IMG/VR virus record: IMGVR_UViG_3300036715_000208
Length of the DNA stretch: 64,000 nt
Direction: 5' to 3' (one strand)
Source: an uncultured virus (IMG/VR IMGVR_UViG_3300036715_000208)
Taxonomy: Duplodnaviria; Heunggongvirae; Uroviricota; Caudoviricetes
Part shown: piece by piece, positions 26,937-44,846 of the stretch
How positions within the stretch are numbered: the first letter of the stretch is position 1
How the letters are laid out: each line of letters opens with the position of its first letter
Made by a program: the position numbers and the translations under genes
Notes under the pieces: generated by a model
What the model saw: the letters and a program-made list of their open reading frames with translations, nothing else
Database searches by the model: none
What the model was told of the DNA's origin: nothing

Positions 26937-29900
26937 TTAGAAGAGATCTCTAAAGGTTTCCAAAGCCTTGTTAGGTAGATTCTCAGCTGGGGCTGAATAT
27001 AGATCGGGTAATCTAAATGTATCTGTCTTCTCATCAGATAGGGTCTTATAAGTATTTTGGATTACTTGTCTTGCAAGACTGCCTATGAATTGATAGGAGC
27101 CAAGCATAGGCATACCAGAAGCTAGACGTATAGTCAGGTCAATTGGTTTTTCTGTTGCTTCCTCCCAGATCCATTTATCTTTATTCTCCTCATCTTTTCT
27201 TCTGGCTAATGAATAGGTAACAGCTTCCATCATAAACAAACCAGCTAGGTGCTTTCCATAGCTGGCTGTTGAATAGCGTCTTCTTCTTCCAATCTCCTGT
27301 ACGGAGTGGCTTAGTAAGAATTGCATGAATACACCCATTGATTTTGCAAACGCAGATTGATTAATACGAAGATCCAACAGGGTTGGGTCAGTATTGGTTT
27401 GTCTTGCGGTAAAGTTAATGTATGCACCCATTCTATTGATGGTATCTATTTTTGTCTTATCGTCGCCAGCCCAGATATACAGCTTCTGTACATCTAGTAG
27501 ACCATCGGTATAGTTCCTTTGATCCTTAGCAGCTTCAATCATTAGCTTAACTAGCTCTGGATTTAATAGACCAGCGGTACTTAGGTTAAGTGCTTCTCTT
27601 GCTGCTAGACCACATCTCTTGGCAAGTTGGTTAAAGTCAGCTAGATTATCTAGAGAGGCAGTCTGCATCTTTTCAGCTAGCTTTAGGAATGTAGATGAGT
27701 TCTTCGTAAAGTTCTCCTGTGCATTCCAAACGTGTAAGGTTGTCGTGATGTCATTTACCCAAGCCAATGGAGCACCGAACCTACTAGCAACAATGCCTAG
27801 TCTGTTCATGCTTCTGTTGACTATACTAGTATCTGACTTGTTTATATCACCGACAGCTCTCCACTCTTCTGCCCATCTCTTACACCAACCACCCTGTCTT
27901 GTTCCAAGCATTGCTCCAGCAAATGGATTTTCAGGAAGAACTTCGGATCTTGACAACAGGTGATCTGATGACATGTTCCTTAACCAGTGAGTTGCACTGG
28001 ATACTTCTTGAATTGTTCTTCTCTTGTCTTTACTGAATAACTGCAATGTCTTTATTAGGTTTGGAATAACCTGCATTAAAGCTCCCTTGTGGTGATTGCT
28101 GGTTAGGATTGCCCTACCAACTTCACCTGTAGAAGTTAATGCAGCTCTGATTCCACTGGCTACAAGGACTGGAGTTCTACTGTTTGTTAGTAGATCTTCA
28201 TAAAATCTATCAAGACCATCCTTAGATCTAGACATCTTTCCGATGTGAGATTCCCAGATGTTCTTCATTCTATCGTATCCACGAACACGACTCTGTTGTT
28301 CTGATAGGGATAGGTTTGCCTTGTTTTGTGATTCTTCTCCGTACTTGGATAGGATTGCAACAAGATCAACCCAACTCATCTTTGTTCCAAAATGATCAGT
28401 AATATACTTGGTCATTAAAGTATCAGTAAGTTGTGAATGAATGTGTTGATTGATTAACTCATATACATTGTTCTGAAAATATCTAGAAAGATCTGGATTC
28501 ATTGCAATATCACTGTGAGATAAAATTCTTTCCTCACTGTAGTTTTTTCCACCTCCAACAGATTCAGATCTAGGCTTTCCAGTCTTACTATCTCCGTCTT
28601 CAATTCCAATGTAACGATCCTTTGCAATTGTCATAGACTGCTTTACAGCCGTATAGTCTGGACCTCGTCCAGCATACAATCTCTTATAGGAATCAATATA
28701 ATCTTTTGAAGACTCAAGACCATCAGAGTGTTTACCCTGATCTTCTAATGAGAGTTTAGTAATAGAATCTTTTCCAAACAGTTCTTTTGTTTTTCCATTC
28801 CACTCCATTACTCCACTTCCAAGTACAGCAAGCGGTGAGTCTTCAGGAATTTCAATTCTAACAATATTATCAGTAGAACCTTGTTCTCTTGTAATCTTAA
28901 GCCAACCAAGAGCATCTGCGGTAACCACAGATATCTCATTGTTTTCCCTAGTCTTCTTTAGAACGTGGTCTGTTAGTGCTTTTACAAAACCTTCCTGATC
29001 CCTAACAGCAAGATTATTAATCTTGTGAATAGTTCCATACTTAAGTGGATCCATAGGTTGAAGAAGGTTTCCATACTTGTTTAAGGTTTCTCCCATTACA
29101 GTATTGTACTTTTGAATTCCTTGAATAAGCTCAGTTATTAATTCCCTATTAGGAATTCCTTCTGGTAGCTTATCAAGATCAGCTGAGTACTTCCACGCCA
29201 TGTTATTAATTTCTGATATCTCTCCAGCATTCTTTACAGTTGAATTAATCTTATTCTTTATTGCAAGAAGACCAGATCTACTGTACATGTTTGTTGATTC
29301 TGCAATAAGCATATCCATAGAGAATAGATTAAATGTTCCTTCAACCTCTCCGTTTCGTAGATCCATTGTTGGATCTAGAATTTTACTTAGGAATTGAAGA
29401 CCCATCGAGCTACTGTCGGCAGTATCGCCATATCTAGACGCTCCTCCGATTCTTGAGTTAACTCCCTTACCAACTACTGAGTTACTGAAAGTAGAGAAGA
29501 CACCAGCTGTGCTGTTTCTATCTCCTACTGACTTTGCAATTGTTGGCATCAATACATCAAGAACAAATGAACGACGATCATCCTCAGATAGATCCCTATA
29601 GGATTTACCCTTGAACTTTGTTGTTATATTTGTTGGTATGTTCTTACTTCCAATTCCCATTCTACCATTTATATGGGACATGTTACTTCTTTGGAATGCA
29701 GAAACACCCTTGATCATTGAGGTCATTACATCAAGATCTTCTGGCTCAGTCTCTTCGTTAAGTTTCATCTCAAGAAGATCTCTTCTTCTAACAGAAGCTG
29801 AATCAATAAGAGTTGATAGATCTGCTTCAAGTTTTGTGGTAGAAGTTCCAGCAGCCTTTGCTGAAGCAATACCTTCCCTTATAGCTGTCTCTGCTCTCTT

Positions 29901-32900
29901 CTGATTTAGAATACGCATATGACCAGGTGCTTTATCAAACTCAATTGCTTCGGGAGATTTCATAATATTCATTTCAGCACGAATAGTCCACTGACTGTGT
30001 GGCAGTGTCTTGCCACCCTCAGTTGCTTGATCAACTAAATTTTCTACGCAAATAGCCCACATAGAACTATCAAATTTCTTTTCACTAGGTGTTTGAAGAA
30101 TTCTTGATAAACTGTCAATACTAATAGCACTGGGTAGATATAGTGCATCCTCTCTAACAACATCCGATGCTTTTTCTCTAGAGTATCCAAAGTCCATTAA
30201 AGCTTGTATTATGTTCTCTGAAGGAATAGAAGCCCATGATTGGGTATGTGAATTCTTAACAACAAGAACATTCTTTTTTGGAGCAGCAAGATACGCAGAA
30301 ATAATTGGTGTACTAGAGTGGTAATCTCTTGCAACGTTAATATTCTCTCCCCAGAATCTTATACCCTTATCTGTGGTCGATACAAGATCAACAGGAACAG
30401 TTCCTCTTTGACCCCTGTGGAATAGAACAGGAATTCCATAATCATTCTTCCACATAATGTCATTACCTTCTGCATCTGTGAAGAACTCTTTAAACTTTAC
30501 TACTCGCTGTTCGTTACTAAGTTTAATAGGAGACAAATCACGATATATTGCAGCAACTACTTTAAAGGCTTCAACTCTAAGATAGGGACTTGACAGGGAT
30601 CTACTAGACAGCCACGCTCTAATATATGGTTTTGCTTTATCGAATGTATCTACTTTAGTATCTTTAATAACCTCTCGTAGTGCATAGATACTTTTTTCAG
30701 TATGCCCCGATACAGCCAGACTATCATTGCTTTTTTTGAGTGCTTTTTCAAAAATAGCATCAGCTATAGCCGATGGTGGTTTCGTTGTATCTTTTACTAT
30801 TACATCATGAAAAAATTTAGTAAGAATATCTTCAGTTTTAAGTGTATTATTTTCTATAATATATTTTATAAAAACACTAAGCTGTTGATCTGGAAAAGTT
30901 TGTACAAGAAAAGTAGCTAATGCTCCCTCGGCACTATTCAGACCATCATAACCATAAGTAAAGTTATGTGGGTAGTTTAAATACAAAGTACGTAATGATT
31001 CTAGGGTATGGTTTGATTCTATTTTTTTAAACGTAGATAACGAAGGGGTAGTTTGTTTCTCTCCGTTATAAAGCATAAGTAAAGCTGACCATATTTTAGT
31101 AAACTGTTCTTCAACACTTTGATATTTTACAGTCTTAATTGAAGTTTTAATATTACTCATATCTACGTTAGAATCAAAAGCAGAGTACATAAAGTTTGCA
31201 AGAGTAGAATCATATGAATCCAATCCATTAATGATTTTTACTTGTCCAGCTTTTGGAAACTTATCTTGAAATTCTTTAAATGCACTTTTTGGATCTACCG
31301 TATTAGGATCAAACTTAGGAAGTTTTGTTACAGGAGTTTGTTGTGAAGAATTAACATCTTCACCTTGAATAGCCTTATTAAGTTTTGCACCTATTACCTT
31401 GTACTCTAATGCCCACCACGCTTCTTTCATCTTTACATCTACAGCGTATGTTGTTCCCTTTAGCCATTCAACATAGAAGGTGTCGGAGTCTCGAATAATT
31501 TTTTCAATGATATCAGAATGTACTGTAAGGTTTTCTTTTTCTAAGAAAGTTACAATTGAAGCAAGAGCTTGAAGAGACTGAGATTGAAGACCCTTTGGCT
31601 TTTCCCCTGTTTGAATATAACCATATATTTTTTGAACTGCAGGATTTTGAATTGCTGCAAGTAACAAAGCTGAGTCGAATTTAAATACGTTTAAACTAGT
31701 ACCATCTAATAAACCACTTTCAACGCTTGCTGTAAGCTTAACACCGTTTAGTTTACCAGGTTCTTCTATTTTTTCTAAGACCTTTAATCCAACTTGTTTA
31801 TAGAGAGGCTGTATTAGACTTTGAAGAATTGGATTTCCAATTGCCTTTGTAGGATTACTTGTAATCCAGGCCTTTACGAGTGTGTTAAAATCTTTAAAAG
31901 TATCTAAAAGAATCTTTGTAACATTGTCTGGATTATCAAGTAAGTTGTTTTTATTTAAATAATAAAGTACATTTCCCATAAATATTCGTTTAGCGTCTGA
32001 AACTGAATTAGAATATCCTAAAGTATCATCTGTTGAAACACTAATAATCTGTTCCATAGTTTCTTTTGAAACTGGAGAATTGTATATATAGTTTGTTTTT
32101 GAGAATAGATTGTGATTTGGAAAACCAGCTTCAAGTTCATCCTTTAACACAGTTTTAACAGACTCTAGTTGTTTAAAACCCACACTAGGAGACTGATCTA
32201 CTAGGTGATTTACAGCAGAACTTAAAGTATTAGTCCAGTTTGCAAAACCAATATTAGTTTTTTCCTTTACAGCTAGATCTACAAAAGACTTTATTAGTTC
32301 GTCTGTAGTAACATTATAAGCTTCACTTACTAATACTATACTTCTTGCTATTTTCCATGTGGTAGCGTTCATACTTGCAACGTGTAAGTATGTAATAGCA
32401 CCCTTTTCAAAAAGATCATCTATAACAATTTTAACTTGTTCTGTAGGAGTGCCTTTAAATTTATTAGCTATATCTATAGATATCGCTTTATCTGTTTGAC
32501 CTATAAATTTTACTCCTAAGTATTCTTTATCAGTAAACAGATTTGAGATAGTAAGATATATCTGTGAAACAGTATGATTAATTCCGTGTTCTTTTGATAT
32601 CCGCAGCCGACTAAAATCATTTTCTAGTGCTGAATTAATAACAGAAGAAACCTCAGATGTAGTAGTACTAATACTATTAACTACTTTGTTTTCTCCCTTT
32701 AGGACATTAGCAACAATATAATCTCTACGTTGTTTTAATATGCTACTTAATTCAAGTGCTTCCTTTGGATCACTGATAACACTATTAATTAAGTTATCAA
32801 TTACACCATCTGACATTGTTTCTCTAAGATTTTTAGCTTGATCAACTATCTTGACATCAGATAGAGTTTCAAACATACGAGCTGTAGATGGATTGGTTTG

Positions 32901-35900
32901 ATCATTTCTAAATGATTTTAATTCTCCAACAACTGGTCCAAACTTATCTCCTTTTGGCGCACCTTGTGCTCTCCACTTAAGAGATCCTCCAGTATCTAAT
33001 ACGCGCCCATGTGCATCCATGTTGTCAAACATGAATCCTGGGCCTCCACCAATATCCCAGTTAGCTAGCCAAGCTGATGCAATAAATACATCATGACCTT
33101 TGATAACGTGGTCTATATTATTCATATCGTATTTTTCTACATCAGAAAGCCAACTGGATAAAAGGATTGGACCCTTTAAACCAAACGCTGGTTCTTTAGA
33201 TATATTAGAATATACCGATGTGTGACCAAGAGATATATACATTAGTTGAGCAAGAACTTCATTCTCAGCGTGACTAAGACTCTTTGCTTCTTTAGCGTAA
33301 TAGAGAATATTATTTTCATCGCTTAGTTGTTTTGCTTTATTTGAACCAAGCTGGCCTCCAATGATTTTAAACTTAGATTCATCTAGTTCACGAATGTGTA
33401 CAGAGTATTGATTTAAAACCTGCATTTTCTTATAGACTCGTCCCTTACTTGCCTTAAGATCATCTCTTAATTTAAGTTGAGTAGTTACCTCAGGTGGAAC
33501 AAACAAGGCTTGATTAAAGATAACAGGAGTAGTCCTAGGATCTTTACCACTGTTTACAAAACTCGAAAGAGGGTTAATAGTGTTGTTTTGTCCTAGTCTA
33601 AATAAGACTGTTCCGCGTTCAGAGCTTGTAACGTAAGGAAGAAAATCACTAAGACCAGTAATCATAGATGCTGCCACCAAACGGTTCTCTGGATCCATAA
33701 TAGTTTCAATTGTTGAAACTTGAATAGACTTGAGCAATTTAGTAGAGGCTATCTGTAGAGATTGTGGAGTTACTTTAATTTCAGCTGCTTCTATTATAGC
33801 TGAAAAAAAATCTTTAAATGCGTTCTTATCTGTTATCTGATTATCTGAAATGATTGACATCTGACTTATAAATGCTGGTTCTGTCATTCCTTCTGATACA
33901 AACTCATGTAAATTTAATCCACCATAGTATAGATTTATACCTTCAGAACCCCAAGTGGTTGTTAGTTCATTACCAAAATTAGTGAAATCATTAACATATT
34001 GTCTTAGTTCAACTGGTAAAAGACCAGAATCAATATATCTAATATATGCAATGAATAATTTCCTTAGTGAAGGTGGCATTCTAACATCAGTAGATAATGC
34101 ACTTTTAATAGCATCTATATAATTTTCACCACTCAGCTCTGAAAATCCTTTATAGTCCTCATATGTCCTAATTCGTTCTGAGGTAAGAGCGTGAAAAATT
34201 TCATGTAATACGTCCGATTCACGCATAGTTTTATGTGCAACCAGGCCTATTATTCTTAGTTCATTAAAGAAAGCAGCAAGACCGACTTTATCATTTGCAG
34301 CCATTACAAGAATATCCTTAAGCATTTCTTGTACACCATCAATCTTCTTAAGTTCATTAACAAGCTTTGAATAATTATGATTATATGTAGATAGTGCGTC
34401 TAGTAATTCAGATCCATTCTTTATGTTTCCATATATTACATCCGACATTACTTTTCTAAACTCAACAGACTCGGTAGTACGAATAGAATTAATTTCACTA
34501 AGCAGCTCTGGCTTAATTGGTTCTGTTCTTCCACTTTCCATATATCCAGATACTATAGAATCAAGGTGATTAAATGCTTCTTCTAGTGATCCTTGGTTTA
34601 GAACAGTAGTTGTATTTTTATCTTTTAAATTCAACTCACCAGACATAATAACATTCGCCGCCTCACTATAGCCACGCAGTCTAAGCTCATTAGCAAAGTT
34701 TTGAAGTTCAGATCTTAGTTCTATTTCCCAGCTTACTACATTCTTTTCAGTAAGCATATCAAGACCTAGCATGTTTGCACGTAGGTTAAATGCACTTCTT
34801 AGGTTGTCTTCCCTGTTTCCAGGCAACCAATAGGTAGCTCTTCTTGCTGCAAAGTATTCAGCTAGCTGAGTCTTTCCATTTTTAATTAGTTGTTCGTGTA
34901 GAATACCAGCAGTAAATGTAAGTAATGCACTCTCATTGTTAGCTGCAAAGTTACTCATTGACTTAGTATCTCTACCACTAGATGTCATTTGCTCGCCAAT
35001 AGATATTTCATCTCCGTCCCTGTTCATTTGAACAAGTCCGCGTATCTTCTTCTTGGTTCCTCTGGATCCTTCATTGGCATCTAGATTCTTAATAACCCCT
35101 CTAACATACTTCTTAGCAACTGCATCGTTACGAAGATCAAGCTCACCGTATGAGTCTTCACCAGAAGCCCAAGCTAAGAATATATCTTTTGGATTGTCTG
35201 TATCCCTAGCTCCAAGCCTTATGGCAACATCTCTCATAGTTTGTGGTGATCCTTCAAGCTCATTCAGAAGATCCGTAATATCAATATTCTCTCTGTCCTT
35301 AGCATAAAAGATATCAGAAAGTTTAGAATATGTTTTTATGTTAGATACTTCAAATAAAGAATTAGCTTTAGCAAGTTCAATCGAACCATGATCTACTACT
35401 GATTCTCCAAGTCTACCAATACTTACTCTATTACGGCTGTTCTCAAATCTAGTTACAAAGGCTTTTCTTCCGTTGTAGTTTTTAATAAGTTGCTTATCTT
35501 CAATAGTTTGGTTTTTCTTTTCCCTAGCAGTTTCGTAGAAAGATTTATTATCTTCTAGATACTTAATACCACTCTCATAGTTTACTGCGTTATCTTTTAC
35601 AAAGGATGATGCCTTATTAAACTCAGCTATCTCTAGTTGATTTCTAATGTGCTTATCACCTAGTAAGAATAAGCTTATCTTATCTTCTGGTATACCAGTT
35701 GCAATAGACATAGCGGATATGTTTTCAGGAGTTGGTTCTCTTAGAGCAACCTCAACTTCTTTCATATCGCTTAATCTTAAGACATCTTCTCTTACAATAG
35801 CAAACGCCTCTAAGGTGGCATCGTCAAGTCCAACTAACCCATCAAGTGTTTCTCTTGCAATTACATTCTTAAGCTCTGCTATTAGATATGTGAGGGGTGG

Positions 35901-38900
35901 TCTTGGTGCTGTGGGGTCATTAGTCTCTTGAAATTTCTTCCAAGCTTCAAGCAATGCTGGAATTCCTTCTGTATTGTTTCTTACAAATACAACCAGATCA
36001 TCTAATTGAGTTTTAGATGCAATACTAAGTTCGCTTCCAATTTCCTTTGCGGTTTTTTGGATTGTTCTTAGTCTTCTGATGGTAGTATTAATTCCAAGTT
36101 CTTGTGGAGTTCTTGTTGGATCTTCCTCAAGATTAATTGCCTCTCTTGATAATACCTTGTCAGCCGAAGATTCTTCCTTGGGCAATAGTAAATCAGCTAC
36201 GGCAGCTACCGAAGTTATATCAGTAGCTTCTTCTAGAGTTCTTGCAACATCAGCTGCAGTCTCAGCAGTAGCTCTTGTCTCTTCTCTCTCAATTGCTCTC
36301 AGTGTTGCGGTAGTTGCTTCTGTTCCTGTAAGGTGTACGGGAAGACCAGCTCCATCAACAAATCCAGTTGGTGTTTCTAATTCATCTAGAGTAGACATAA
36401 TTTCTTCTGATGAAATAACTTCTACCTTTGGTTCAGATGTCTTTACTCTTCTATTCATTTCAGAGATAGCCATATCTCTTGTTACAGATCTTGTTATCTT
36501 CTTTAATTCTAACTTATTAGTTGTGGTATTAAAGTCTGGCTTATAACTTAAAGTTACATCGTATACACCAAGGTGTTCTTCGTTTGCTAGGTTTAGAAGT
36601 ATATCATCTGAAATCTTTTTCATATCACTAGGGAGTGCAATATCAAGTAAAGATAGATTTAACTTTACTGGATTCTTTGCCGCACGTTCTCCTTCAACTG
36701 CTATTGCTTTTAGGGAAGATACAACAGCATCCTTTGTAAGACCAGCAGTTAGTGCTAATCTTATAAGCTTCTTGGTTGGAGAACCAACCACAGCAGACTT
36801 AATATCTTCAATCAGTTTTGTAACTGAGATTCTTTTTGCAGCTGATCCAGCAATTACTGGATCGTTCTTAAGCCTAGCCTCAGCTCTTGACTTCTGTAGC
36901 TTTGCTTTATAATCATTGAACTGTGCTTCTCCTAGAATCTCAGCTCCAATGGCATTTCTTTGTTCTAACGGAAGTTGTGCAAAGATTCTTCTATAAGATA
37001 CATCGAAGAATTCGCTGATCTTATCGTTGTTTCTATTCATAAACTTCTCATAGACAGATACTGATTCTGGTGTCATTTCAAGACCAGCTTCTAATGCTTC
37101 CTGTGACTTGAACTGCTCTCCTAGGTTTCCTGAGTGATCTCCAAGTCTATGAAACAGACGCTGAATTGCAGTGCTAGGGGCTTTGCCCTTACCAGACATT
37201 AGGTTCTTTACAAACGTAGCCCACCCATTAGCAAACTTTTCCTCAGCCTTTATGATTTTGTTAATCTTGTTCTGAGCTTCAGCTTTAAGTTCGGGTGTTT
37301 CACCTTCCTTAGCTTGCTTCTCAAGGATAGCAAACTCTGGATCAGTAGACCAAATCTCCTCTTCATTACCAACCCAATCAGTGAACTTCTTCCACTCTGA
37401 GTCAGTAATTCCTACGGCATGTCTTGCCTTTACAGCTTCTTCAGACCTACCAATGAATGTAAATCTATGGTAGTGGCCCATCTCATGAGCAATACTACCT
37501 AGATCTGATTCCTTAGTTGATTGAATTAGTGCTCTTGTTCCACTTAAGACAATGTTTGCCGTTGCTTTCTCATCAATAGTTCCAGCAGCACTCTTTATGA
37601 TTCTCATTAGGTGATCTTCTGGAGAAAATCCTAATGTCCTCATAATAATACTAGAAACAGTTGCTTCTTTTTTATTCATTCCAAATACAGAAGCGATTGA
37701 TTCAATGCTTGGATCCTTTGCCTTATTGAAAACATCATCAAAGATAAACTCAACTTGCTTTCGCTTTGCTGCGTCTTTAATCTTTGACACTTCTTTCTTA
37801 ACTTTTTCCTTAAGACTACTAACCCATACCTCATGAATCTTTTCTTTAGCTGCTTCCATATTCTCAGTAAACTTACTCATTGTAGTAATGTTATCTGGTG
37901 TATATGACGCATTATTTTTAACATCAAGTTCAACACGAACTCTACTTCCATCTCTTTTTAGTTCAGATTCTGGAGTAGCAACTAATCTTCTCTTTGATCT
38001 AACTACCTCATTAGTAGCTGGGTCAAACATAATAGCAAATGTTGGATCATTTGTATCGGTTGCATCTGTTAAGTAATGTAATTTCTTTTTTCCCTCTTCT
38101 TCTTTAGTGCCAAGCCCAAGAGCTGATCTAAAGATTTGCTTTGCAGTTTCAGTTGGGATTACTCTTCCACCAATATTGACTTCTGGATCTGTAGAAGACA
38201 TTATTGATTGTAATAGTTTAGATACATTTGCTTCATCAGTATTTCCAGCAAGATATCCTGCTGTTGTTTTGTATGTACTGAAGTCTGCATTATCCATGAT
38301 ATCAAGTCTTCTACCAAGCAGTCCTTCGGCTTCAGATAAAATGTCTGAACCAGTAAGTCCAATCTGTTCAACTCTTCTATCTAAGATCTTAGTATCAAGC
38401 AATCTACTGATGTGTCTAACTCTAAGTTCTTGAGAAGCATTCTTTACAGCTCCAGTTAGATCAGTAAGGAGTCTACCTTCTGAGTTGGCTTGAAGTGGAA
38501 ACATCCCGCTGTTGTTTGAGAACTCTCTATAACTGTTAATAGTTTTAACAGCATCGTCGTAACTGAGATTGTGTTCATCTAAGAACTTCTTATCCAGAAG
38601 TTGCATAAACATTGTACTCATGTGTGGATCAACACCAGCAACTCTACGCATTGCAGCTTCTCCTGCAATTCCAGTTGCCTTCTCTAGGGCATCTGCAACC
38701 TTGAGTGCTTCTACAGTATCTAGGTTCATCTTAGCAGCAATGGTAGAATCAAGCCGTCCAAATAGACGATCTCCATTCAACATTATATTTGTAAAGTTTC
38801 TTCCATCTTTACCAGCCATGTATCTATCAATTGAATTTCCAAAAGCAATACCTCGACCGTCACTGAGTTCTTCTCCGTAAACGATCAAACCTTCTTTGGT

Positions 38901-40268
38901 AGTTGCCCAACCGTCAAGAGAATTAGCAATTGCCTTTCTCCAGTTTACCCAGTCTCCCTTACGATAGTATTTAAAGTCACCTAGCGCACCTAGACCAAAC
39001 CTCATTACTCCCAGCATTCCTACTGCAGCTAGTCCGCTAGTGATTCCTTGTGTAATTGCACTATCGTAATCGTATTTCATTACTTTATCTGTATCCTTAA
39101 ATACAAGACTACGCCAGTCATATTGATCCTCTTGATCAGCAAGTGCAGTGGTAAAACCAGCAGCTCCACCCTCAGTAAATATTGCAATAGCTCTTGCTAG
39201 TGCTGTTTTAGAGGCTGATCTACCAGCACTCTTGAAAACAGTTGCTTTAAGTCCAGCAAATACTGGTCCTTCAATAAGACCTGTTACTGGTCCTGTAAGT
39301 TTTTGTACACGTGCTGCCGCTCTTGCTAGTTGAGATACCCTAAGTGTTGTTGCAGTAGCTGCAGAACCAGATACTACAAGTTCTGTACCAACTGCTTGTA
39401 TTGTTCCCAAGCCAGCGGTAAGAATAGTTGCCGCAACCATGTCACGTGCCATAAGCGGATCTTTAAATCCTTCCCAAGCACCAGCAGCAAACTTAAATAC
39501 AGCACCCGTGTCTTGTTCCCATACACCCATTCTGGTATTAATAACAGACTGTTTTGCAGCTTCCATAATTCCTACAGTAAACGCAGTTTCGTTTAAAGTA
39601 GGTGCTACATAATCATTAAAATTTATTCCAGCTCTTTGAATATACTCATAAGCATCTGGATTCTTCTTCTTCCAATTTACAAATGTCTCTTGTTTCTTTT
39701 CTTCTGTCCACGAAGAATCTTTTTCTGCCAACCTAGTTTTTAATCTCTTATAGTCTCCCTCAATATCTGTCTCATGGAAGAATTTTTCAAAACCTTCTAC
39801 TATCCCCATAAACCAATTACCAACTCCTCTAGCTTTTTCTGAGTAAGTAAAAGCTTCGTCGCTTGGTAAAGGAAATCCTTCAGCTTTACCTTTAGATGCA
39901 TTAAGTCTTGCTTGTTCTAATTCTATATTTCTTTCTCCCCAACCTCTCGCTGATTGAGACTGCTGAATAGCAAATCCAGAATAACCACGATTAGCTCTAG
40001 AACCAGTATCATCTACTACATTAAAATTAAGATTACCAATTGCCTTAAGTGTCTTTAAACCTTGTTCTTCTTTAGCTAATTCTATGTTGGCATTTTGTCT
40101 ATCCCACGTAGAAGTGTTTTCTAAATCTTGTGAAATACTATTGGGTAGTCCTGCAAACTGAGCCGTTAGTGGCTTTGCAAAAGGATCCTGGGTCGTAGCT
40201 AGATCTTGATTATTACTATTATCAATAAAATCTTGGAGAACCCGAAGTGGATCATTACTTGTACTCAT
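26937..40268 (-). CDS. giant internal virion/ejection protein (T7 gp16 position), polyvalent
   Basis: 4443 aa; last of the internal-virion cluster; hydrophobic N-proximal helices; internal HEMGH, HEIFH, kinase-like and ART-like modules. Confidence 0.8.
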   Translation of the reverse strand: MSTSNDPLRVLQDFIDNSNNQDLATTQDPFAKPLTAQFAGLPNSISQDLENTSTWDRQNANIELAKEEQGLKTLKAIGNLNFNVVDDTGSRANRGYSGFAIQQSQSARGWGERNIELEQARLNASKGKAEGFPLPSDEAFTYSEKARGVGNWFMGIVEGFEKFFHETDIEGDYKRLKTRLAEKDSSWTEEKKQETFVNWKKKNPDAYEYIQRAGINFNDYVAPTLNETAFTVGIMEAAKQSVINTRMGVWEQDTGAVFKFAAGAWEGFKDPLMARDMVAATILTAGLGTIQAVGTELVVSGSAATATTLRVSQLARAAARVQKLTGPVTGLIEGPVFAGLKATVFKSAGRSASKTALARAIAIFTEGGAAGFTTALADQEDQYDWRSLVFKDTDKVMKYDYDSAITQGITSGLAAVGMLGVMRFGLGALGDFKYYRKGDWVNWRKAIANSLDGWATTKEGLIVYGEELSDGRGIAFGNSIDRYMAGKDGRNFTNIMLNGDRLFGRLDSTIAAKMNLDTVEALKVADALEKATGIAGEAAMRRVAGVDPHMSTMFMQLLDKKFLDEHNLSYDDAVKTINSYREFSNNSGMFPLQANSEGRLLTDLTGAVKNASQELRVRHISRLLDTKILDRRVEQIGLTGSDILSEAEGLLGRRLDIMDNADFSTYKTTAGYLAGNTDEANVSKLLQSIMSSTDPEVNIGGRVIPTETAKQIFRSALGLGTKEEEGKKKLHYLTDATDTNDPTFAIMFDPATNEVVRSKRRLVATPESELKRDGSRVRVELDVKNNASYTPDNITTMSKFTENMEAAKEKIHEVWVSSLKEKVKKEVSKIKDAAKRKQVEFIFDDVFNKAKDPSIESIASVFGMNKKEATVSSIIMRTLGFSPEDHLMRIIKSAAGTIDEKATANIVLSGTRALIQSTKESDLGSIAHEMGHYHRFTFIGRSEEAVKARHAVGITDSEWKKFTDWVGNEEEIWSTDPEFAILEKQAKEGETPELKAEAQNKINKIIKAEEKFANGWATFVKNLMSGKGKAPSTAIQRLFHRLGDHSGNLGEQFKSQEALEAGLEMTPESVSVYEKFMNRNNDKISEFFDVSYRRIFAQLPLEQRNAIGAEILGEAQFNDYKAKLQKSRAEARLKNDPVIAGSAAKRISVTKLIEDIKSAVVGSPTKKLIRLALTAGLTKDAVVSSLKAIAVEGERAAKNPVKLNLSLLDIALPSDMKKISDDILLNLANEEHLGVYDVTLSYKPDFNTTTNKLELKKITRSVTRDMAISEMNRRVKTSEPKVEVISSEEIMSTLDELETPTGFVDGAGLPVHLTGTEATTATLRAIEREETRATAETAADVARTLEEATDITSVAAVADLLLPKEESSADKVLSREAINLEEDPTRTPQELGINTTIRRLRTIQKTAKEIGSELSIASKTQLDDLVVFVRNNTEGIPALLEAWKKFQETNDPTAPRPPLTYLIAELKNVIARETLDGLVGLDDATLEAFAIVREDVLRLSDMKEVEVALREPTPENISAMSIATGIPEDKISLFLLGDKHIRNQLEIAEFNKASSFVKDNAVNYESGIKYLEDNKSFYETAREKKNQTIEDKQLIKNYNGRKAFVTRFENSRNRVSIGRLGESVVDHGSIELAKANSLFEVSNIKTYSKLSDIFYAKDRENIDITDLLNELEGSPQTMRDVAIRLGARDTDNPKDIFLAWASGEDSYGELDLRNDAVAKKYVRGVIKNLDANEGSRGTKKKIRGLVQMNRDGDEISIGEQMTSSGRDTKSMSNFAANNESALLTFTAGILHEQLIKNGKTQLAEYFAARRATYWLPGNREDNLRSAFNLRANMLGLDMLTEKNVVSWEIELRSELQNFANELRLRGYSEAANVIMSGELNLKDKNTTTVLNQGSLEEAFNHLDSIVSGYMESGRTEPIKPELLSEINSIRTTESVEFRKVMSDVIYGNIKNGSELLDALSTYNHNYSKLVNELKKIDGVQEMLKDILVMAANDKVGLAAFFNELRIIGLVAHKTMRESDVLHEIFHALTSERIRTYEDYKGFSELSGENYIDAIKSALSTDVRMPPSLRKLFIAYIRYIDSGLLPVELRQYVNDFTNFGNELTTTWGSEGINLYYGGLNLHEFVSEGMTEPAFISQMSIISDNQITDKNAFKDFFSAIIEAAEIKVTPQSLQIASTKLLKSIQVSTIETIMDPENRLVAASMITGLSDFLPYVTSSERGTVLFRLGQNNTINPLSSFVNSGKDPRTTPVIFNQALFVPPEVTTQLKLRDDLKASKGRVYKKMQVLNQYSVHIRELDESKFKIIGGQLGSNKAKQLSDENNILYYAKEAKSLSHAENEVLAQLMYISLGHTSVYSNISKEPAFGLKGPILLSSWLSDVEKYDMNNIDHVIKGHDVFIASAWLANWDIGGGPGFMFDNMDAHGRVLDTGGSLKWRAQGAPKGDKFGPVVGELKSFRNDQTNPSTARMFETLSDVKIVDQAKNLRETMSDGVIDNLINSVISDPKEALELSSILKQRRDYIVANVLKGENKVVNSISTTTSEVSSVINSALENDFSRLRISKEHGINHTVSQIYLTISNLFTDKEYLGVKFIGQTDKAISIDIANKFKGTPTEQVKIVIDDLFEKGAITYLHVASMNATTWKIARSIVLVSEAYNVTTDELIKSFVDLAVKEKTNIGFANWTNTLSSAVNHLVDQSPSVGFKQLESVKTVLKDELEAGFPNHNLFSKTNYIYNSPVSKETMEQIISVSTDDTLGYSNSVSDAKRIFMGNVLYYLNKNNLLDNPDNVTKILLDTFKDFNTLVKAWITSNPTKAIGNPILQSLIQPLYKQVGLKVLEKIEEPGKLNGVKLTASVESGLLDGTSLNVFKFDSALLLAAIQNPAVQKIYGYIQTGEKPKGLQSQSLQALASIVTFLEKENLTVHSDIIEKIIRDSDTFYVEWLKGTTYAVDVKMKEAWWALEYKVIGAKLNKAIQGEDVNSSQQTPVTKLPKFDPNTVDPKSAFKEFQDKFPKAGQVKIINGLDSYDSTLANFMYSAFDSNVDMSNIKTSIKTVKYQSVEEQFTKIWSALLMLYNGEKQTTPSLSTFKKIESNHTLESLRTLYLNYPHNFTYGYDGLNSAEGALATFLVQTFPDQQLSVFIKYIIENNTLKTEDILTKFFHDVIVKDTTKPPSAIADAIFEKALKKSNDSLAVSGHTEKSIYALREVIKDTKVDTFDKAKPYIRAWLSSRSLSSPYLRVEAFKVVAAIYRDLSPIKLSNEQRVVKFKEFFTDAEGNDIMWKNDYGIPVLFHRGQRGTVPVDLVSTTDKGIRFWGENINVARDYHSSTPIISAYLAAPKKNVLVVKNSHTQSWASIPSENIIQALMDFGYSREKASDVVREDALYLPSAISIDSLSRILQTPSEKKFDSSMWAICVENLVDQATEGGKTLPHSQWTIRAEMNIMKSPEAIEFDKAPGHMRILNQKRAETAIREGIASAKAAGTSTTKLEADLSTLIDSASVRRRDLLEMKLNEETEPEDLDVMTSMIKGVSAFQRSNMSHINGRMGIGSKNIPTNITTKFKGKSYRDLSEDDRRSFVLDVLMPTIAKSVGDRNSTAGVFSTFSNSVVGKGVNSRIGGASRYGDTADSSSMGLQFLSKILDPTMDLRNGEVEGTFNLFSMDMLIAESTNMYSRSGLLAIKNKINSTVKNAGEISEINNMAWKYSADLDKLPEGIPNRELITELIQGIQKYNTVMGETLNKYGNLLQPMDPLKYGTIHKINNLAVRDQEGFVKALTDHVLKKTRENNEISVVTADALGWLKITREQGSTDNIVRIEIPEDSPLAVLGSGVMEWNGKTKELFGKDSITKLSLEDQGKHSDGLESSKDYIDSYKRLYAGRGPDYTAVKQSMTIAKDRYIGIEDGDSKTGKPRSESVGGGKNYSEERILSHSDIAMNPDLSRYFQNNVYELINQHIHSQLTDTLMTKYITDHFGTKMSWVDLVAILSKYGEESQNKANLSLSEQQSRVRGYDRMKNIWESHIGKMSRSKDGLDRFYEDLLTNSRTPVLVASGIRAALTSTGEVGRAILTSNHHKGALMQVIPNLIKTLQLFSKDKRRTIQEVSSATHWLRNMSSDHLLSRSEVLPENPFAGAMLGTRQGGWCKRWAEEWRAVGDINKSDTSIVNRSMNRLGIVASRFGAPLAWVNDITTTLHVWNAQENFTKNSSTFLKLAEKMQTASLDNLADFNQLAKRCGLAAREALNLSTAGLLNPELVKLMIEAAKDQRNYTDGLLDVQKLYIWAGDDKTKIDTINRMGAYINFTARQTNTDPTLLDLRINQSAFAKSMGVFMQFLLSHSVQEIGRRRRYSTASYGKHLAGLFMMEAVTYSLARRKDEENKDKWIWEEATEKPIDLTIRLASGMPMLGSYQFIGSLARQVIQNTYKTLSDEKTDTFRLPDLYSAPAENLPNKALETFRDLF

Positions 40269-40280: not shown

Positions 40281-40310
40281 AAATAGGAGGGGGTCTTTCG
40301 ACCCCCATCC
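40281..40310 (-). terminator. hairpin/attenuator between the gp15-like and gp16-like genes
   Basis: Minus strand GGATGGGGGTC-GAAA-GACCCCCTCC-TATTTT. Confidence 0.65.
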
Positions 40311-40319: not shown

Positions 40320-43300
40320 TTATTGTTGTTGTTGTTGTTTATAAAAATTCATAAAATTTTGTTGAACAGTATCTACGTAAGCAGTAAAACTTTCACCATA
40401 AGCTGTTGCATCATCTCTGTTTTTAAAGATTGCAAATGATTTGTTCTCGGTAGCATATTTATCTTTAAGAACTTCAGGCTCTAAATTATACGGATTAGGA
40501 ACCAATATAAATTTCTTATTATAATATATTACAGTTGGTTTTATTAGTCTACGTGGAACACCAGCCTGATCTGGTATAGGACTTTCAAAGACATCTAAAA
40601 GATATTCAAAGTCTACCTTTATTGTTCCGTCTTCTGATTTAAGAGGAGTCTTTACTTTAGTAGTCCATAAACCAGGTGTTTCCCTAGTTGGTTCTACATA
40701 AGGAGTAAAATTTATACTCTTTGCAAGTAATCGTAGAGTATCGTTTTTTATTGATTTTTGAGTATCTGCTTCTGCAGCTACTTCTATTCTATTGACATCT
40801 GTAATTAGTTGTTGTCCTTCAACCCCAGCAATCTCAGCAGCCCTACTTATAGTGGCTTGAGTTCGTGTATCAAAGTTTGAAAGAGCGTCATCTAGTCTAT
40901 CTTTCTTAGTTGGACCAGAGTTATACAGCAATACTGGTGCTCCATATTGAGGAGCTTTTTCAATAGACCTAACGGGTGATGATGTAGAGTACTCGTATTT
41001 ATTTGGTACTCCTGTACTTGAATCACCAACCTTTACAGGAGTATTATTAGGTAACCAAGTGTGTGTTACTGGATCTAATCCATAATAGGTTTTAAAGTTT
41101 CCCTTATTATAAACAGCATCGTATTTCTCAGGATATAGTTTTTCTGTATCTTGCCAAACGGTTGTATTACCGTTGTAACTTGGTTGTTGTAGAACTCTGT
41201 TTACTGTAACAGATCCATCATCTAGTGTAGTTTTTCTATATACAAATCGAGTTGCCCCCAATAAACCAGCTATAGGTAAATTTTTATCTTTTTGAGGATT
41301 GGGAACAAAAGATAGGTTTGGTTGTGGTTGGCTTAATAGCCAATCTTTAACAAAGAAATCTCGACCTTCTGGTGGAGCGTAACCTTCTGGTTCTGTTGAT
41401 TCTGGAAAGGTATTATACTTACTAATAGCATCTTTCATATCTAGAGACTTAATAAACTTATTGCCTACTTCTGTATCTTTTAGACGCTCAGAAACAGTAT
41501 TAGAATTTGGTTGAAGGGTAGCATACTCTTTATTACCCCTGTATAAAATATATGTAGGAGCTACATTATCAGGATCAAGATATGATTGTCGGTTTTCTGT
41601 AGTAAGAAAAATACTACCTTCTAATAGTTGTTGTCTAATTTTTGCTGCCTCAGAAGTTACCCACTTAACTGCCTGTTCTTCAGTATTAATAGTATCTGGT
41701 ATTGCCTGTAGTGCATACTGTGCTGCAAGAATTGCTGCAGAATCTGTGTTTGAGCCTAATGCTCCAGTAGCCAGGGCTATTATTAATCCCGCCTTCCCGC
41801 CACTACCTTTTGCTAGATCTAAAATATTACCTGGAATTTTATGACCTATTGGTAAAACAACCGCTGCAATTTCAGGAGAAAGAGTATCTGTGTATGCAGA
41901 TAAAGCATATGCTGCTCTGTCATCAACTTGCATGAACTGACCAAGCATTGTTTTTGCTAGCTCAGGTTTCATTGGTACACCTGTTGTATTCCTAGTAACA
42001 CCAACCAGTGGTTTAGAGTTTAAAATAATTTGATCAGTAGGCATAAGATCATTCATACCAGAAGAAGTAGTAAGGTTTTTTGGCATATCCGTTTTACTTC
42101 CTTTAGATGTTCTAGTGTATCCTCGTAGCGTATCATAGTCTAATCTAAAACTTGAAAGCCTCTTATTAACCATAGTGATTAACGTAGGCTTAAAGTCTTC
42201 TTTATCCTTAGACATATTTCTTTCTAATACAAGAGCTTCTTCTAAAATAATCTGATCTACTTGTTTTCTTATTGTTATTGTTCTCGTTGCTTCTGTTTCT
42301 TTAGTCAAATCAAGAACTAGAGCGGATCTAAATGACTCCATTGATCCTAGATTATCATGCTGATCTCCAGGAGTTAAAGACGGATAGATCTCCTCCATGA
42401 GTTTTTGATAAGGAACTATTGCTCTTTTTTGAAGTTCTGCAGCATTGGGTGTTTTATCTGAACTAGGAACTACATGTGATCCTTCAGCTGCTATATTTGC
42501 TTCTTTTAAAGAACTCTCTTTAGAAATTTGTTCAGAACTTAGTGTAGCTTTTTTAACAAAAGCAAACGGGTTTGTACCATCGTATCTAGTATTTAAAATT
42601 TTAAACTTATTTAATTCAGTAGTTAGTTGATTCTTTTTAATTGGATCAACTACATTTTTGATAGATGTCTCAAGATGAACAATTAAACTATCTCTATCAT
42701 CTGGTGAAAGTGTAAGTGCTAAACTTTGAAATGCAGTTTGTGTATTAGGATCTTCTGATTGAAATCCACGTTCAAACGTATTTTTTCTTTCGGATGTAAA
42801 TGATGATTTAGTAACTGAGTGTCTTTGTGTGTTTTTAATATCATCAAATGAAACAGGAGATCCCTTAGGACCAGATAATATAGAAGCAAAGGTTTTTTCA
42901 ATTACCGATCTTGGACTATCTGTATCTGTTGTTCTCTTATTTAAAACATCCTGCAAGAATGCATCATAATAAGGAGTGTGTTGAAATAATTCTAGATTAA
43001 ATAATGCTGTTTTATCACCATCATTAAGTTCTAGTTGTACTTCTTCCCATGTTTTCATGTTTCCATCTTCTTTAAACAAGTCCTTACTAGACATTCTTGA
43101 ACTTAATGCAAGAAGACCAGCATCTAAATATTCTTTTAATGTTGGTGGTACTTGATTATCTACAAGAACTCCACCAGTAATACTTGCGCTTATAATCTTT
43201 TGACTTCTTATAAAAGAATCGTTTGCTTTCTTTCTTCTATTATTGTACTCTTCTGATCCTACGTTTTTTCCATATACATGTGAAGCTAGTTTCATATACT

Positions 43301-44846
43301 CTTCATTGTATTTATCATACTCACCCTTAAATCTAGGGGTTTGTAATATAGGATCTATGTGACTACCAAACACATCTAATTCAAAGGATGGTGCGCTAAG
43401 GGCTGTGGACAGATAAAAAATAGGAGATTTAAATGAGTCACCAGAAGGAACAGGAGATCTAATAAGCGTATCAAAGAGTGCTCTGCTAGAAGTTGGAGCA
43501 GCTTGAGTAAGAGTCTCCATTATCTTTTGTTGTACTCCAGCAAGTATTTTATTTTGTTGTTCTTCAAGAATATCAGAAAGTTCTGGCCTTTCTTTAGATA
43601 GCTTTGTAAGATAATCTATTTGAGTTGTTGCTGCACGTGCTGCGGTAGAGATTGATAATCCTCTCGCTGTTACTGCAGCCTCTAGAATTGATTCAGATTG
43701 TTTGCGTATAAAAACTAGTTGACTGTTATCAAAAGCACCAAGTGATTTTCTTGTCTGAGCTAATTTGTTAGCTGCTTCTGGAGAAAATCCAGGTAGATCC
43801 GTCACAATATCGTAAGCTTCATCGCTTAGTTTATTTTTAAGATTGTATTTTGATTTTTCAAATGAAGTTGGTTTATCACGATCTTCATCTATTGCGTATG
43901 CAATACGTAAGTATGTATCCATAGTATCTATTAGTTTTTGTTCTCCTCTAGAAACTAAAGTACTAATCCTTACTGACTTTTCTCTTTCCTCTGGAGTAAG
44001 TTTGTCCCAAGGAGTTTTATCTAGTACTGTTGCTATAGCTGCCAAGTCTGCTGCTGCGCCATCAAACTCTGCATCAGCTGAGGTAAGCATAACTCTAGCT
44101 TTTTCATCAAAAGATTCTATCATTGTTGGAAGCTTAACTCCTCTCATTGCTTTATCTGCTAATGACTGAGCATCAAGCCACTTTGCTTCAAGACCTCTAG
44201 CATAAGCTTTTTCTGCTTTAGTTCTAGAAGTTTTTTCAGTAAACATATCTGATTTGAATTTATCTCTATAGAGAGCTTCTAAATCTGGTTTATAAAAATT
44301 GTCTATATAGTCCTGAACTTCTTCTGGTGGTAGTTTTTGCATGTCTGCTTCGGCTAAGTTATTAAACCGCTGAAACGTATCTAGTTCTACTAGATTGGCA
44401 TACTCACCTTGAGCAACTGACTTGTCATTATCCCACTTTGCAATAGAACTTCTAGTGTTTGCTAGCATTGCCGATGGAATTTTTCCAACTGGTTGCTCAT
44501 CTGTGTTGGGATCATAACCAAGATTAATCTTTACAAGATCACCAAACTTAGTTCTTTCATGATCGTATGTAGCCCAGTCTCCCCGCTCTGCCGCTAACTT
44601 TAAAGCAGCATCTGTTGCAAATGTTTGCTTTCTAATAGCGGCTTCTGTTACTTGAGCCTTGTGTTCGTTTATTACGTTTACAGTTTCAATACCTAGATTT
44701 GCAGCAGCTTGTCCAATCTTACCCAGATCAATTCCCTGTGTAACGGTGATCTGTTGTTGTGGAAGAATAGTTCTACTTTCCTGATATATAATTGGTTTTG
44801 CTGGCTGTACTATAGCCTGTGGACCTTGTATTTGAAATTGACTCAT
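40320..44846 (-). CDS. internal virion protein (T7 gp15 position), enlarged
   Basis: 1508 aa, largely helical, Q/P-rich N-terminus; synteny between gp14-like and gp16-like genes. Confidence 0.6.
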   Translation of the reverse strand: MSQFQIQGPQAIVQPAKPIIYQESRTILPQQQITVTQGIDLGKIGQAAANLGIETVNVINEHKAQVTEAAIRKQTFATDAALKLAAERGDWATYDHERTKFGDLVKINLGYDPNTDEQPVGKIPSAMLANTRSSIAKWDNDKSVAQGEYANLVELDTFQRFNNLAEADMQKLPPEEVQDYIDNFYKPDLEALYRDKFKSDMFTEKTSRTKAEKAYARGLEAKWLDAQSLADKAMRGVKLPTMIESFDEKARVMLTSADAEFDGAAADLAAIATVLDKTPWDKLTPEEREKSVRISTLVSRGEQKLIDTMDTYLRIAYAIDEDRDKPTSFEKSKYNLKNKLSDEAYDIVTDLPGFSPEAANKLAQTRKSLGAFDNSQLVFIRKQSESILEAAVTARGLSISTAARAATTQIDYLTKLSKERPELSDILEEQQNKILAGVQQKIMETLTQAAPTSSRALFDTLIRSPVPSGDSFKSPIFYLSTALSAPSFELDVFGSHIDPILQTPRFKGEYDKYNEEYMKLASHVYGKNVGSEEYNNRRKKANDSFIRSQKIISASITGGVLVDNQVPPTLKEYLDAGLLALSSRMSSKDLFKEDGNMKTWEEVQLELNDGDKTALFNLELFQHTPYYDAFLQDVLNKRTTDTDSPRSVIEKTFASILSGPKGSPVSFDDIKNTQRHSVTKSSFTSERKNTFERGFQSEDPNTQTAFQSLALTLSPDDRDSLIVHLETSIKNVVDPIKKNQLTTELNKFKILNTRYDGTNPFAFVKKATLSSEQISKESSLKEANIAAEGSHVVPSSDKTPNAAELQKRAIVPYQKLMEEIYPSLTPGDQHDNLGSMESFRSALVLDLTKETEATRTITIRKQVDQIILEEALVLERNMSKDKEDFKPTLITMVNKRLSSFRLDYDTLRGYTRTSKGSKTDMPKNLTTSSGMNDLMPTDQIILNSKPLVGVTRNTTGVPMKPELAKTMLGQFMQVDDRAAYALSAYTDTLSPEIAAVVLPIGHKIPGNILDLAKGSGGKAGLIIALATGALGSNTDSAAILAAQYALQAIPDTINTEEQAVKWVTSEAAKIRQQLLEGSIFLTTENRQSYLDPDNVAPTYILYRGNKEYATLQPNSNTVSERLKDTEVGNKFIKSLDMKDAISKYNTFPESTEPEGYAPPEGRDFFVKDWLLSQPQPNLSFVPNPQKDKNLPIAGLLGATRFVYRKTTLDDGSVTVNRVLQQPSYNGNTTVWQDTEKLYPEKYDAVYNKGNFKTYYGLDPVTHTWLPNNTPVKVGDSSTGVPNKYEYSTSSPVRSIEKAPQYGAPVLLYNSGPTKKDRLDDALSNFDTRTQATISRAAEIAGVEGQQLITDVNRIEVAAEADTQKSIKNDTLRLLAKSINFTPYVEPTRETPGLWTTKVKTPLKSEDGTIKVDFEYLLDVFESPIPDQAGVPRRLIKPTVIYYNKKFILVPNPYNLEPEVLKDKYATENKSFAIFKNRDDATAYGESFTAYVDTVQQNFMNFYKQQQQQ

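Follow-up and report, generated by a model that had tools for sequence, protein, structure and literature searches.

The open reading frame at 26937..40268, minus strand, of a 64,000-nucleotide stretch of DNA from an uncultured virus (IMG/VR record IMGVR_UViG_3300036715_000208; the whole stretch is called the window here) is a single open frame for a protein of 4443 amino acids (aa) and 494 kDa. We think it likely that its product is the largest of the ejection proteins of a T7-like podophage, remodelled into a polyvalent protein that delivers enzymes. The chain holds several biochemically unrelated domains, which differ between relatives. A gp16-type C-terminal domain is preceded by two zincin-like metallopeptidase domains, a predicted atypical kinase and a module apparently related to the ADP-ribosyltransferase (ART) family ART-PolyVal.

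An earlier note, made from the letters of the window alone, had described a gene more than three times the size of that for T7 gp16 with four sets of enzyme-like motifs, and had proposed that the phage injects ready-made enzymes to disarm or reprogram the host. The observation is confirmed and the interpretation is in part supported. The protein is 3.4 times as long as T7 gp16 (1318 aa), and the motif sets lie within the ranges given for them: HEMGH starts at aa 928 (nucleotide 37487), EEKFA at 1009 (37244), HEIFH at 2022 (34205), LHEFVSE at 2120 (33911), NWD at 2403 (33062), DTGGSL at 2425 (32996) and LFHRG at 3282 (30425). All 13 aligned proteins have the same zincin residues H928, E929, H932, E1010, H2022, E2023, H2026 and E2122, so the motifs are beyond chance. 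The gene and its modules are as follows.

26937..40268, minus strand: giant gp16-type ejection protein, 4443 aa; final gene of the late region, with full-length homologues
37629..40091, minus strand: N-terminal scaffold (aa ~60-880), conserved; hydrophobic helices rich in glycine span aa 277-295 and aa 404-422
36879..37601, minus strand: zincin-like metallopeptidase 1, aa ~890-1130; H928 E929 H932 ... E1010
34599..36401, minus strand: middle region of moderate conservation, aa ~1290-1890, without a family assignment
33849..34391, minus strand: zincin-like metallopeptidase 2, aa ~1960-2140; H2022 E2023 H2026 ... E2122
33408..33461, minus strand: payload slot, left border (aa 2270-2287): a conserved D-L-K-A-x-K-G-R followed by VLNQ
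32694..33380, minus strand: predicted atypical kinase, aa ~2297-2525; K2326, E2337, D2405, N2416, D2425
30729..32681, minus strand: hypervariable block X, aa ~2530-3180; G+C content 0.315, no family
29901..30497, minus strand: domain apparently derived from ART-PolyVal, aa ~3258-3456; R3285 at the strand-1 His position; closes with ILNQ, where the slot has its right border
26940..29900, minus strand: helical C-terminal domain (aa 3457-4443), conserved; structural alignment pairs aa ~3611-4281 with residues 516-1275 of T7 gp16

Relatives of the giant protein

Neither the whole protein nor 14 overlapping 500-aa segments of it gave a significant match in Pfam or PHROGs, and no LPD family of Pfam was matched directly. 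In tblastn against cultured phages, aa 1-2200 had no match, and for aa 2201-4443 the kinase was the only one. A homologue search returned 15 proteins, namely 12 full-length relatives of 3171-4548 aa and three unrelated giants that have only the kinase in common with the query. A profile of the C-terminal domain, searched against 1.84 billion representatives, gave 38 matches, including 15 more full-length relatives. A scan of IMG/VR with the C-terminal domain of the single protein found nothing; a search with the alignment of this domain yielded six loci and a metagenome scan three. Module profiles were then mapped on 29 full-length proteins, that of locus L005 included.

A gp16-type C-terminal domain

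The C-terminal ~990 residues form a gp16-type ejection-protein domain. This is supported by three independent lines, each of them weak: the fold, a profile match combined with synteny, and the position behind a gp14-like gene. Both the fold matches and the profile link bear out the gp16-type identity that the earlier note had assumed.

The fold was modeled for aa 3250-4443 (1194 aa; mean predicted local distance difference test score, pLDDT, 66.7). In a Foldseek search of 350,542 chains, ranks 1, 2 and 5 were ejection proteins of PhiM1 (8vb2_A), T7 (9jyy_I, which we take from its chain length to be gp16) and E1004 (9vvp_O). 8vb2_A is the tetrameric ejection protein gp48, and the tetrameric class is that of T7 gp16 (PMC11440229, main text). 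When the matches were realigned, these three came first, with Z scores of 7.7, 7.4 and 6.8, root mean square deviations (rmsd) of 5.4-6.7 and 273-300 aligned residues, while the remaining 47 rows aligned over only 43-71 residues. In a wider fold search PhiM1 ranked third and was again the sole long match.

The second line starts from P0135 and P0136, two proteins of about 1270 aa without HExxH. The profile of the C-terminal domain matched them in hhalign with 99.3% probability (E 1e-20) over 727 columns. An 88% identical relative of P0135 is encoded at locus L099, where the gene order is nozzle, 199 aa, 750 aa, 1273 aa, tail fibre. This is the pattern of T7 gp14, gp15 and gp16, and the 1273-aa gene fills the canonical gp16 slot. 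The N-terminal scaffold did not match P0135 with a shallow profile; a deeper one gave a weak match to the N-terminus of this 1271-aa protein (domain E 1e-4). P0135, P0136 and P0125 had no match among cultured phages.

The third line is the setting of the gene. It sits among late virion genes, as the last and largest member of a cluster of four (221, 327, 1508 and 4443 aa) at the end of the late region. The claim that it occupies the gp16 position holds only loosely. The cluster is led by a gp14-like gene, but it comprises four genes, follows the terminase and does not lie between nozzle and tail fibre; the gene order is identical in L004-L008.

A predicted kinase shared with phage head proteins

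A model of aa 1960-2530, covering zincin 2 and the kinase, reached a pLDDT of 86. Its best fold matches were CtkA (Z 14.6, rmsd 3.2, 205 residues aligned) and CotH (14.5), followed by MavQ (12.7), PI4KIIa (12.7) and HipA (11.2), and Foldseek was concordant. The residues K, E, D, N and D are conserved in 118, 120, 119, 117 and 119 of 120 kinase domains, respectively. By its model, the domain is an atypical kinase like CtkA, CotH, HipA and PI4K-II, with intact catalytic residues, and it is probably active, which we hold with good confidence. Its fold does not separate protein from lipid kinases as substrate class, as both score within 2 Z units. No Pfam family covers it. Kinase-PolyVal was considered and rejected: this family is defined by loss of the C-terminal subdomain (PMC5512222, main text), whereas the domain here has a helical C-lobe, aligns with CtkA over 205 residues and has no match to the Pfam Kinase-PolyVal model.

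The same kinase was found in 90 shorter proteins, none of them below 367 aa, and 468 IMG/VR stretches encode it. Of the 90, 23 also carry a MuF, minor-capsid or portal Pfam domain, and many carry an ART or Nudix domain; the names of these Pfam accessions are in part those that we take them to have. In cultured phages the respective genes are labeled hypothetical or ADP-ribosyltransferase. Judged from these domain combinations, the kinase is a mobile module that recurs in fusion proteins of the phage head and portal, which points to delivery by the virion in other phages as well.

These fusions bear on the possibility that the enzymes are not injected at all. The middle of the protein might be excised at head assembly, as in P1 DdrB, so that only the scaffold is packaged and kinase and ART-like module act late in the producing cell, in host shut-off, superinfection exclusion or assembly control. 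P1 DdrB is indeed processed before packaging (PMC5512222, main text), the gene is located in the late region, and several copies of a 494-kDa chain would occupy space in the head. However, a late enzyme does not need to be fused to an ejection protein, and neither the 23 fusions to unrelated head proteins nor the absence of any kinase-bearing protein below 367 aa among the 90 fits a late enzyme. We therefore regard late action as very improbable.

Exchange of modules at a single slot

The region from the motif at aa 2270 to the start of the C-terminal domain at aa 3457 behaves as a slot with variable content. Among the 29 full-length proteins, 11 contain the kinase, a variable block and an ART-like module with Arg at the strand-1 His position (Arg-type ART); five contain a canonical ART-PolyVal domain that matches Pfam; one has a different insert of ~170 aa; and in 12 the slot is empty, two of these being without zincin 2 as well. 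The block between kinase and ART-like module (block X) is 77% identical in P0001 and at most 22% identical in the other 11 aligned proteins. The variable central block that the earlier note had predicted is thus seen in both the slot contents and block X. In P0001, zincin 1, the middle region and the C-terminal domain are 97-98% identical to the query, as against 63% for zincin 2 and the 77% of block X.

The slot states were placed on a tree of the C-terminal domain (27 rows, the near-copies P0004 and P0009 being omitted; quick method, unrooted). On this tree the kinase state needs five changes, four of which are imposed by branches with good support. For the canonical ART state four changes are needed, three of them imposed in this way. 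Three different slot states occur within one clade of 100% support, formed by P0010, P0011 and the L005 protein, whose C-terminal domains are 75-79% identical (for P0011 the identity is that of a 98% identical twin in L006). These comparisons make it clear that exchange has happened repeatedly at one site, gains and losses being not separable on an unrooted tree.

Two zincin-like domains

The first HExxH motif is present in 29 of 29 full-length members and the second in 27. Zincin 2 is doubled in P0116 and missing from P0123 and P0125. A profile of zincin 1 matched the HExxH domains of gp45 of Limnohabitans phage DC33 (E 2.8e-6) and gp39 of Caulobacter phage JessA (E 0.005), and its Atlas neighbours were LPD23 and LPD1 clusters (0.91-0.95); a PDB sequence match was not found for it. 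In the model, zincin 2 runs in the order helix, three strands, HExxH helix and later Glu helix, which is the order of the metallopeptidase core given in PMC5512222 (main text). Its profile weakly matched Spartan and the HExxH domain of the N4 virion RNA polymerase (vRNAP; E 0.039-0.1), the latter being its best natural PDB match. Structure searches with the model of zincin 2 plus kinase returned no zincin fold, the lists being filled by kinases. A recent duplication was rejected as the origin of the pair, since beyond the motif no relationship between zincin 1 and zincin 2 could be detected.

The two domains evolve at different rates. Zincin 1 is 98% identical in P0001 and 90% in P0002 and is the most conserved module in these two nearest relatives, whereas zincin 2 is down to 63% and 52%. 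Because of this difference, the universal zincin 1 most likely faces the phage itself, for example by cutting the chain to free the payload, and the fast-diverging zincin 2 is more likely to face the host. Both may, however, act on their own protein or on the cell envelope rather than on host defences.

The motif [IVLF][LF]NQ was considered as a cut site: all of its four occurrences lie at module borders, compared with 0.28 expected, although the pattern was picked after it had been seen. A comparable hydrophobic-hydrophobic-x-Q closes the canonical ART-PolyVal domains. In 15 distant relatives the motif occurred three times against ~2.9 expected, and a looser cut motif was not enriched in JessA (none) or DC33 (3; P 0.10). 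As a zincin cut site, [IVLF][LF]NQ is a lead only. Taken together, release of the payload by self-cleavage, which would follow the model for polyvalent proteins, is a possibility that we doubt slightly more than we believe.

The protein may instead be ejected whole and remain anchored in the inner membrane like the N4 vRNAP. The HExxH domains would then be structural or regulatory, and kinase and ART-like module would act near the site of ejection. N4 vRNAP is packaged unprocessed (PMC5512222, main text), and the recombinant protein, gp50, has an HExxH domain and yet is not degraded (PMC13434306, main text), a finding that speaks against self-cleavage as a general property. The similarity of zincin 2 to this very domain and the failure of the candidate motif to generalise point in the same direction. 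On the other hand, all three predicted zinc ligands and the catalytic Glu of both zincins are invariant in the 13 aligned proteins. Tethering keeps the delivery claim and alters only the release step; we consider it possible, if somewhat doubtful.

It could also be that one or both zincins open the envelope by cutting peptidoglycan cross-links or envelope proteins, in place of the transglycosylase of T7 gp16, and that the protein serves chiefly as part of a channel. Pfam and PHROGs showed no lytic transglycosylase in the giant protein, whole or in 500-aa segments, or in the three upstream genes. The same role has been proposed for phi24B gp47 (bioRxiv 2026.04.10.717836, main text), gp28 of cyanopodophage A4 carries an M23 peptidase (PMC12002296, main text), and the fast divergence of zincin 2 would fit an enzyme of the host surface. 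However, JessA has a separate transglycosylase gene and nevertheless a related zincin in its largest ejection gene. A kinase needs ATP and an ART needs NAD, hence the cytoplasm, and envelope opening leaves these two modules unexplained. It appears unlikely as the main function.

Proposed mechanism and points against it

In the reading that we prefer, enzyme delivery by an ejection protein, the N-terminal membrane-type scaffold and the gp16-fold C-terminal domain would direct packaging on the portal core and threading through the tail at infection. The hydrophobic N-terminal helices are candidates for a membrane anchor. The middle would go through the tail as a string of loosely joined domains, which has been proposed for N4 gp50 (PMC13434306), and would bring kinase and ART-like module into the cell by the time the DNA enters or earlier, with no need for gene expression. 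Zincin 1 might then cut the chain and free the payload, as in the model of 2017 (PMC5512222), and the payload would modify host targets, phosphorylation being the best supported activity. As the comparison of relatives shows, the content of the slot is gained, lost or swapped through recombination. Whereas the identity of the scaffold rests on profile, synteny and fold, packaging and ejection are taken over from T7, PhiM1 and N4; on these analogies the protein is very probably packaged and ejected. For its size there are precedents in N4 gp50, with 3500 aa and four copies (PMC13434306, main text), and in phi24B gp47, with 2811 aa, which was detected in virions (bioRxiv 2026.04.10.717836, main text). 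It is also likely, again by analogy, that the payload works on the host early. To disarm or reprogram the host would be its likeliest purpose, judged from T4 Alt and the polyvalent proteins.

A number of results weigh against this reading, among them the lack of a transglycosylase and the intact recombinant N4 protein mentioned above. The fold matches of the C-terminal domain are below the tool's clear level, the best Foldseek E being 0.010 and none being below 0.001. A sequence link to T7 gp16 was not found with a profile of seven Studiervirinae gp16 sequences (hhalign probability 0.2-4.6%), and no PDB sequence match ties the domain to gp16. Neither kinase nor ART is present in 13 of the 29 proteins, and the kinase is missing in 18; being absent from so many relatives, both are accessory. 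The ART-like module has no Pfam match of its own, and its Atlas recognition value of 2226 is below the tool's mark of 2300. Moreover, in nine of nine copies the His of the active site is replaced by Arg, and the strand-2 Tyr by Arg or Ser.

The ancestry of the module is better supported than its activity. The L004 copy, 31% identical to it, matches PF18760 (ART-PolyVal) with E 0.0016; 28 of 30 Atlas feature matches of the module itself are ART-PolyVal clusters (score 0.91); and hhalign of the module against three canonical copies gave E 0.0015, compared with 0.33 for the reversed control. These comparisons support a shared ancestry with ART-PolyVal. The active site of that family is H-Y-D (PMC5512222, main text). 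Since the strand-1 His is Arg in all nine copies, the module may not be an active transferase; the third active-site position is not confidently placed. ADP-ribosylation or use of NAD is thus doubtful, and we lean slightly against an active enzyme.

The module could instead lack catalysis and serve as a spacer or bind NAD, ADP-ribose or nucleic acid, leaving the kinase as the sole active payload. Apart from the two replaced residues, this is suggested by three fold searches with the 1194-aa model, which returned no ART; the ART domain makes up one sixth of this model, and its first 80 residues have a pLDDT of 36-55. Conversely, the Arg, a W/F-G-E/T motif, 'ARDY/AGDY' and 'PHxQW' are kept in nine of nine copies that are 28-66% identical to the query protein, ARTs of the R-S-E clade use a strand-1 Arg (PMC5512222, main text), and the Arg-type ART co-occurs with the kinase in 11 of the 11 family members that carry it. 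Among 755 candidates, only one shorter protein matched the Arg-type ART, and this was a fragment of a close relative. A non-catalytic role is therefore a tentative alternative that falls a little short of an even chance. In sum, the claim of discrete enzyme modules stands for the kinase by its fold, for the zincins by motifs and topology and for the ART-like module by its ART-PolyVal ancestry; it does not extend to a canonical ART active site.

Relation to known systems

Polyvalent and giant ejection proteins as such are known, examples being N4 vRNAP, phi24B gp47 and the gene slot of JessA and DC33. Virion delivery of polyvalent proteins has been predicted before (PMC5512222, PMC9503650, main texts), and in A4 the ejection proteins number four and include hydrolases (PMC12002296, main text). 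What appears to be new is a gp16-type protein with one fixed slot of swappable payload, together with this kinase family. Our search of the open literature, which covered listings and, for the papers cited here, main texts (subscription papers and supplements, including the FTP files of PMC5512222, being outside its scope), did not turn up a T7-type gp16 with an exchangeable slot, nor this kinase family in virions.

The phage-type polyvalent proteins described by Iyer et al. in 2017 (PMC5512222, main text) are likewise large late-region proteins with one or more zincin metallopeptidases among unrelated enzymes and are predicted to be packaged and injected, and ART-PolyVal itself occurs in five relatives of the giant protein. 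They differ in that the protein here has a T7-type gp16 scaffold, a kinase with a full C-lobe and an ART that is not H-Y-D. The main text of that paper does not contain 'gp16' or 'internal virion'. It proposes self-cleavage by the zincins, and a test of this was not found in the texts covered.

With T7 gp16 and PhiM1 gp48 the giant protein shares its place at the end of a gp14-led cluster in which its gene is the largest, the C-terminal fold and the glycine-rich hydrophobic N-terminal helices. Unlike them, it has ~3000 aa of inserted modules, belongs to a four-gene cluster after the terminase and has no detectable sequence similarity to either. N4 gp50 is comparable: it too is a giant gp16 analogue, built as beads on a string, and it brings both an enzyme and an HExxH domain into the cell (PMC13434306, main text), as the protein here is predicted to do. 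In N4, however, the RNA polymerase (RNAP) is inside the chain, whereas the phage of the window has a separate 823-aa RNAP gene. For the C2 domain of N4 the main text of PMC13434306 reports no structural homologue, whereas the C-terminal domain here matches gp16. An identity as N4-like vRNAP was rejected, as there was no RNA_pol match in the giant protein (Pfam and PHROGs, whole and segments).

Phi24B gp47, JessA gp39 and DC33 gp45 are polyvalent proteins of 2039-3125 aa in the largest ejection-gene slot of podophages, and those of JessA and DC33 combine ART-PolyVal with a zincin akin to zincin 1. Their scaffolds, however, are of the LPD type (LPD22; LPD5/LPD1/LPD38), and JessA and DC33 did not match the N-terminal, C-terminal or kinase profiles of the giant family. 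JessA gp39 (L100 9213-15332, labeled lysis protein) and DC33 gp45 (L101 7430-16807, hypothetical) both combine LPD22, ART-PolyVal and a zincin. Both phages are in culture and are ready test systems. The DC33 record gives Inoviridae as taxonomy though the phage is tailed, and the main text of the DC33 paper is silent on the polyvalent protein (PMC12195039).

T4 Alt is a protein-modifying enzyme delivered by the virion, though as a stand-alone R-S-E ART (PMC5512222, main text). The fusion effectors of the MuF, minor-capsid and portal type (for example Pseudomonas phage Dolphis gp117 and a Gordonia phage Sixama protein) have a kinase that is 27-39% identical with the same catalytic residues, on another carrier and usually alongside R-S-E type ARTs or Nudix. 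The product of T7 gp0.7 is expressed from an early gene and is not known as a virion protein. As a phage kinase that reprograms the host (PMC5512222, main text) it resembles the kinase proposed here.

If delivery is right, the T7 ejectosome doubles as an enzyme-delivery device. The kinase, common in phage head proteins and without a Pfam model, would then act before phage gene expression, when many bacterial defences fire. Two matters would become testable: the self-cutting of polyvalent zincins proposed in 2017, and how much folded cargo a podophage tail passes. The natural empty and filled alleles pinpoint the slot, so that cargo tolerance could be tested at the matching site in laboratory T7-like phages.

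Two further giants, P0137 (4070 aa) and P0150 (4234 aa), have C-termini that match the gp16-like domain as distant relatives (domain E 6e-18 and 6e-17), a T7-type RNAP core near aa 1400-1600 and one HExxH. Both are candidates for virion RNA polymerases built on this scaffold. One might go further and regard gp16 as a general cargo chassis that accepts ~3000 inserted residues at the slot before the C-terminal domain, exchanges its payload naturally and releases it by zincin cleavage at hydrophobic-hydrophobic-N-Q borders. Its cargoes would be an undescribed, widespread CtkA/HipA-like kinase with an Arg-type ART of new chemistry, and the RNAP core in P0137 and P0150. In this full form the idea is rather unlikely; if true, the chassis of P0137 and P0150 would be one route from gp16 to virion RNA polymerases.

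Gene cluster and other features of the window

Searches of the window proteins with Pfam and PHROGs show that the window reads on the minus strand as a T7-like phage genome. Markers are a single-subunit RNAP (16798-19269), Pol A, a primase-helicase, portal, tube, nozzle and a T7-type TerL; a class II ribonucleotide reductase, scaffold, capsid and fibres are also encoded. The nearest cultured phages are distant (RNAP 28%, terminase 40%). The neighbours of the giant gene are as follows.

45826..46491, minus strand: 221-aa gp14-like gene; Pfam T7_gp14 E 0.0038, under the curated cut-off
44843..45826, minus strand: 327-aa gene; candidate fourth ejection protein by position only; conserved within the cluster
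40320..44846, minus strand: 1508-aa gene; candidate gp15-type tunnel protein by position only; highly divergent in relatives
40286..40310, minus strand: GC-rich hairpin directly 5' of the ribosome-binding site of the giant gene

Profiles of the 221-, 327- and 1508-aa proteins matched neither T7 gp13-gp16 nor the L099 genes, and this includes the 1508-aa profile against T7 gp15 and the 750-aa L099 gene. The 1508-aa gene, which has no family, is ~30% identical to the L004-L008 copies in its first 100 residues and 7-23% elsewhere and thus diverges far more than its neighbours.

A hairpin precedes the ribosome-binding site of the giant gene in five of five loci (window, L004, L005, L006, L008; counted without a shuffle control), with differing sequences; in the window, L004 and L008 a U-run comes after it. 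It is a possible attenuator that would hold the copy number of the giant protein low. A long stable hairpin also lies just 3' of the gene (26860-26937, minus strand), likewise in L003, L004, L006 and L008, and is possibly a terminator or an RNase III site. A 14-base motif has three copies on the minus strand, at 26828 (after the giant gene), 19332 (before the RNAP gene) and 5665, and two copies at corresponding places in L003; it is a candidate phage promoter or operator.

Genes for a SprT-like zinc peptidase and a calcineurin-like phosphoesterase adjoin the RNAP gene (15316-16385, minus strand) and are kept in L007, the phosphoesterase although the L007 phage is without the kinase. An early-region gene (19726-20445, minus strand) has a C-terminal dockerin type I domain (E 2.7e-8), which may be a clue to the host. 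The scaffold gene lies at the right end of the window (63573-63998, minus strand) and the portal gene at the left end (236-1837, minus strand), with no terminal repeat at the window ends. Because these two genes stand at opposite ends, the arrangement suggests that the window is a nearly complete, circularly permuted genome.

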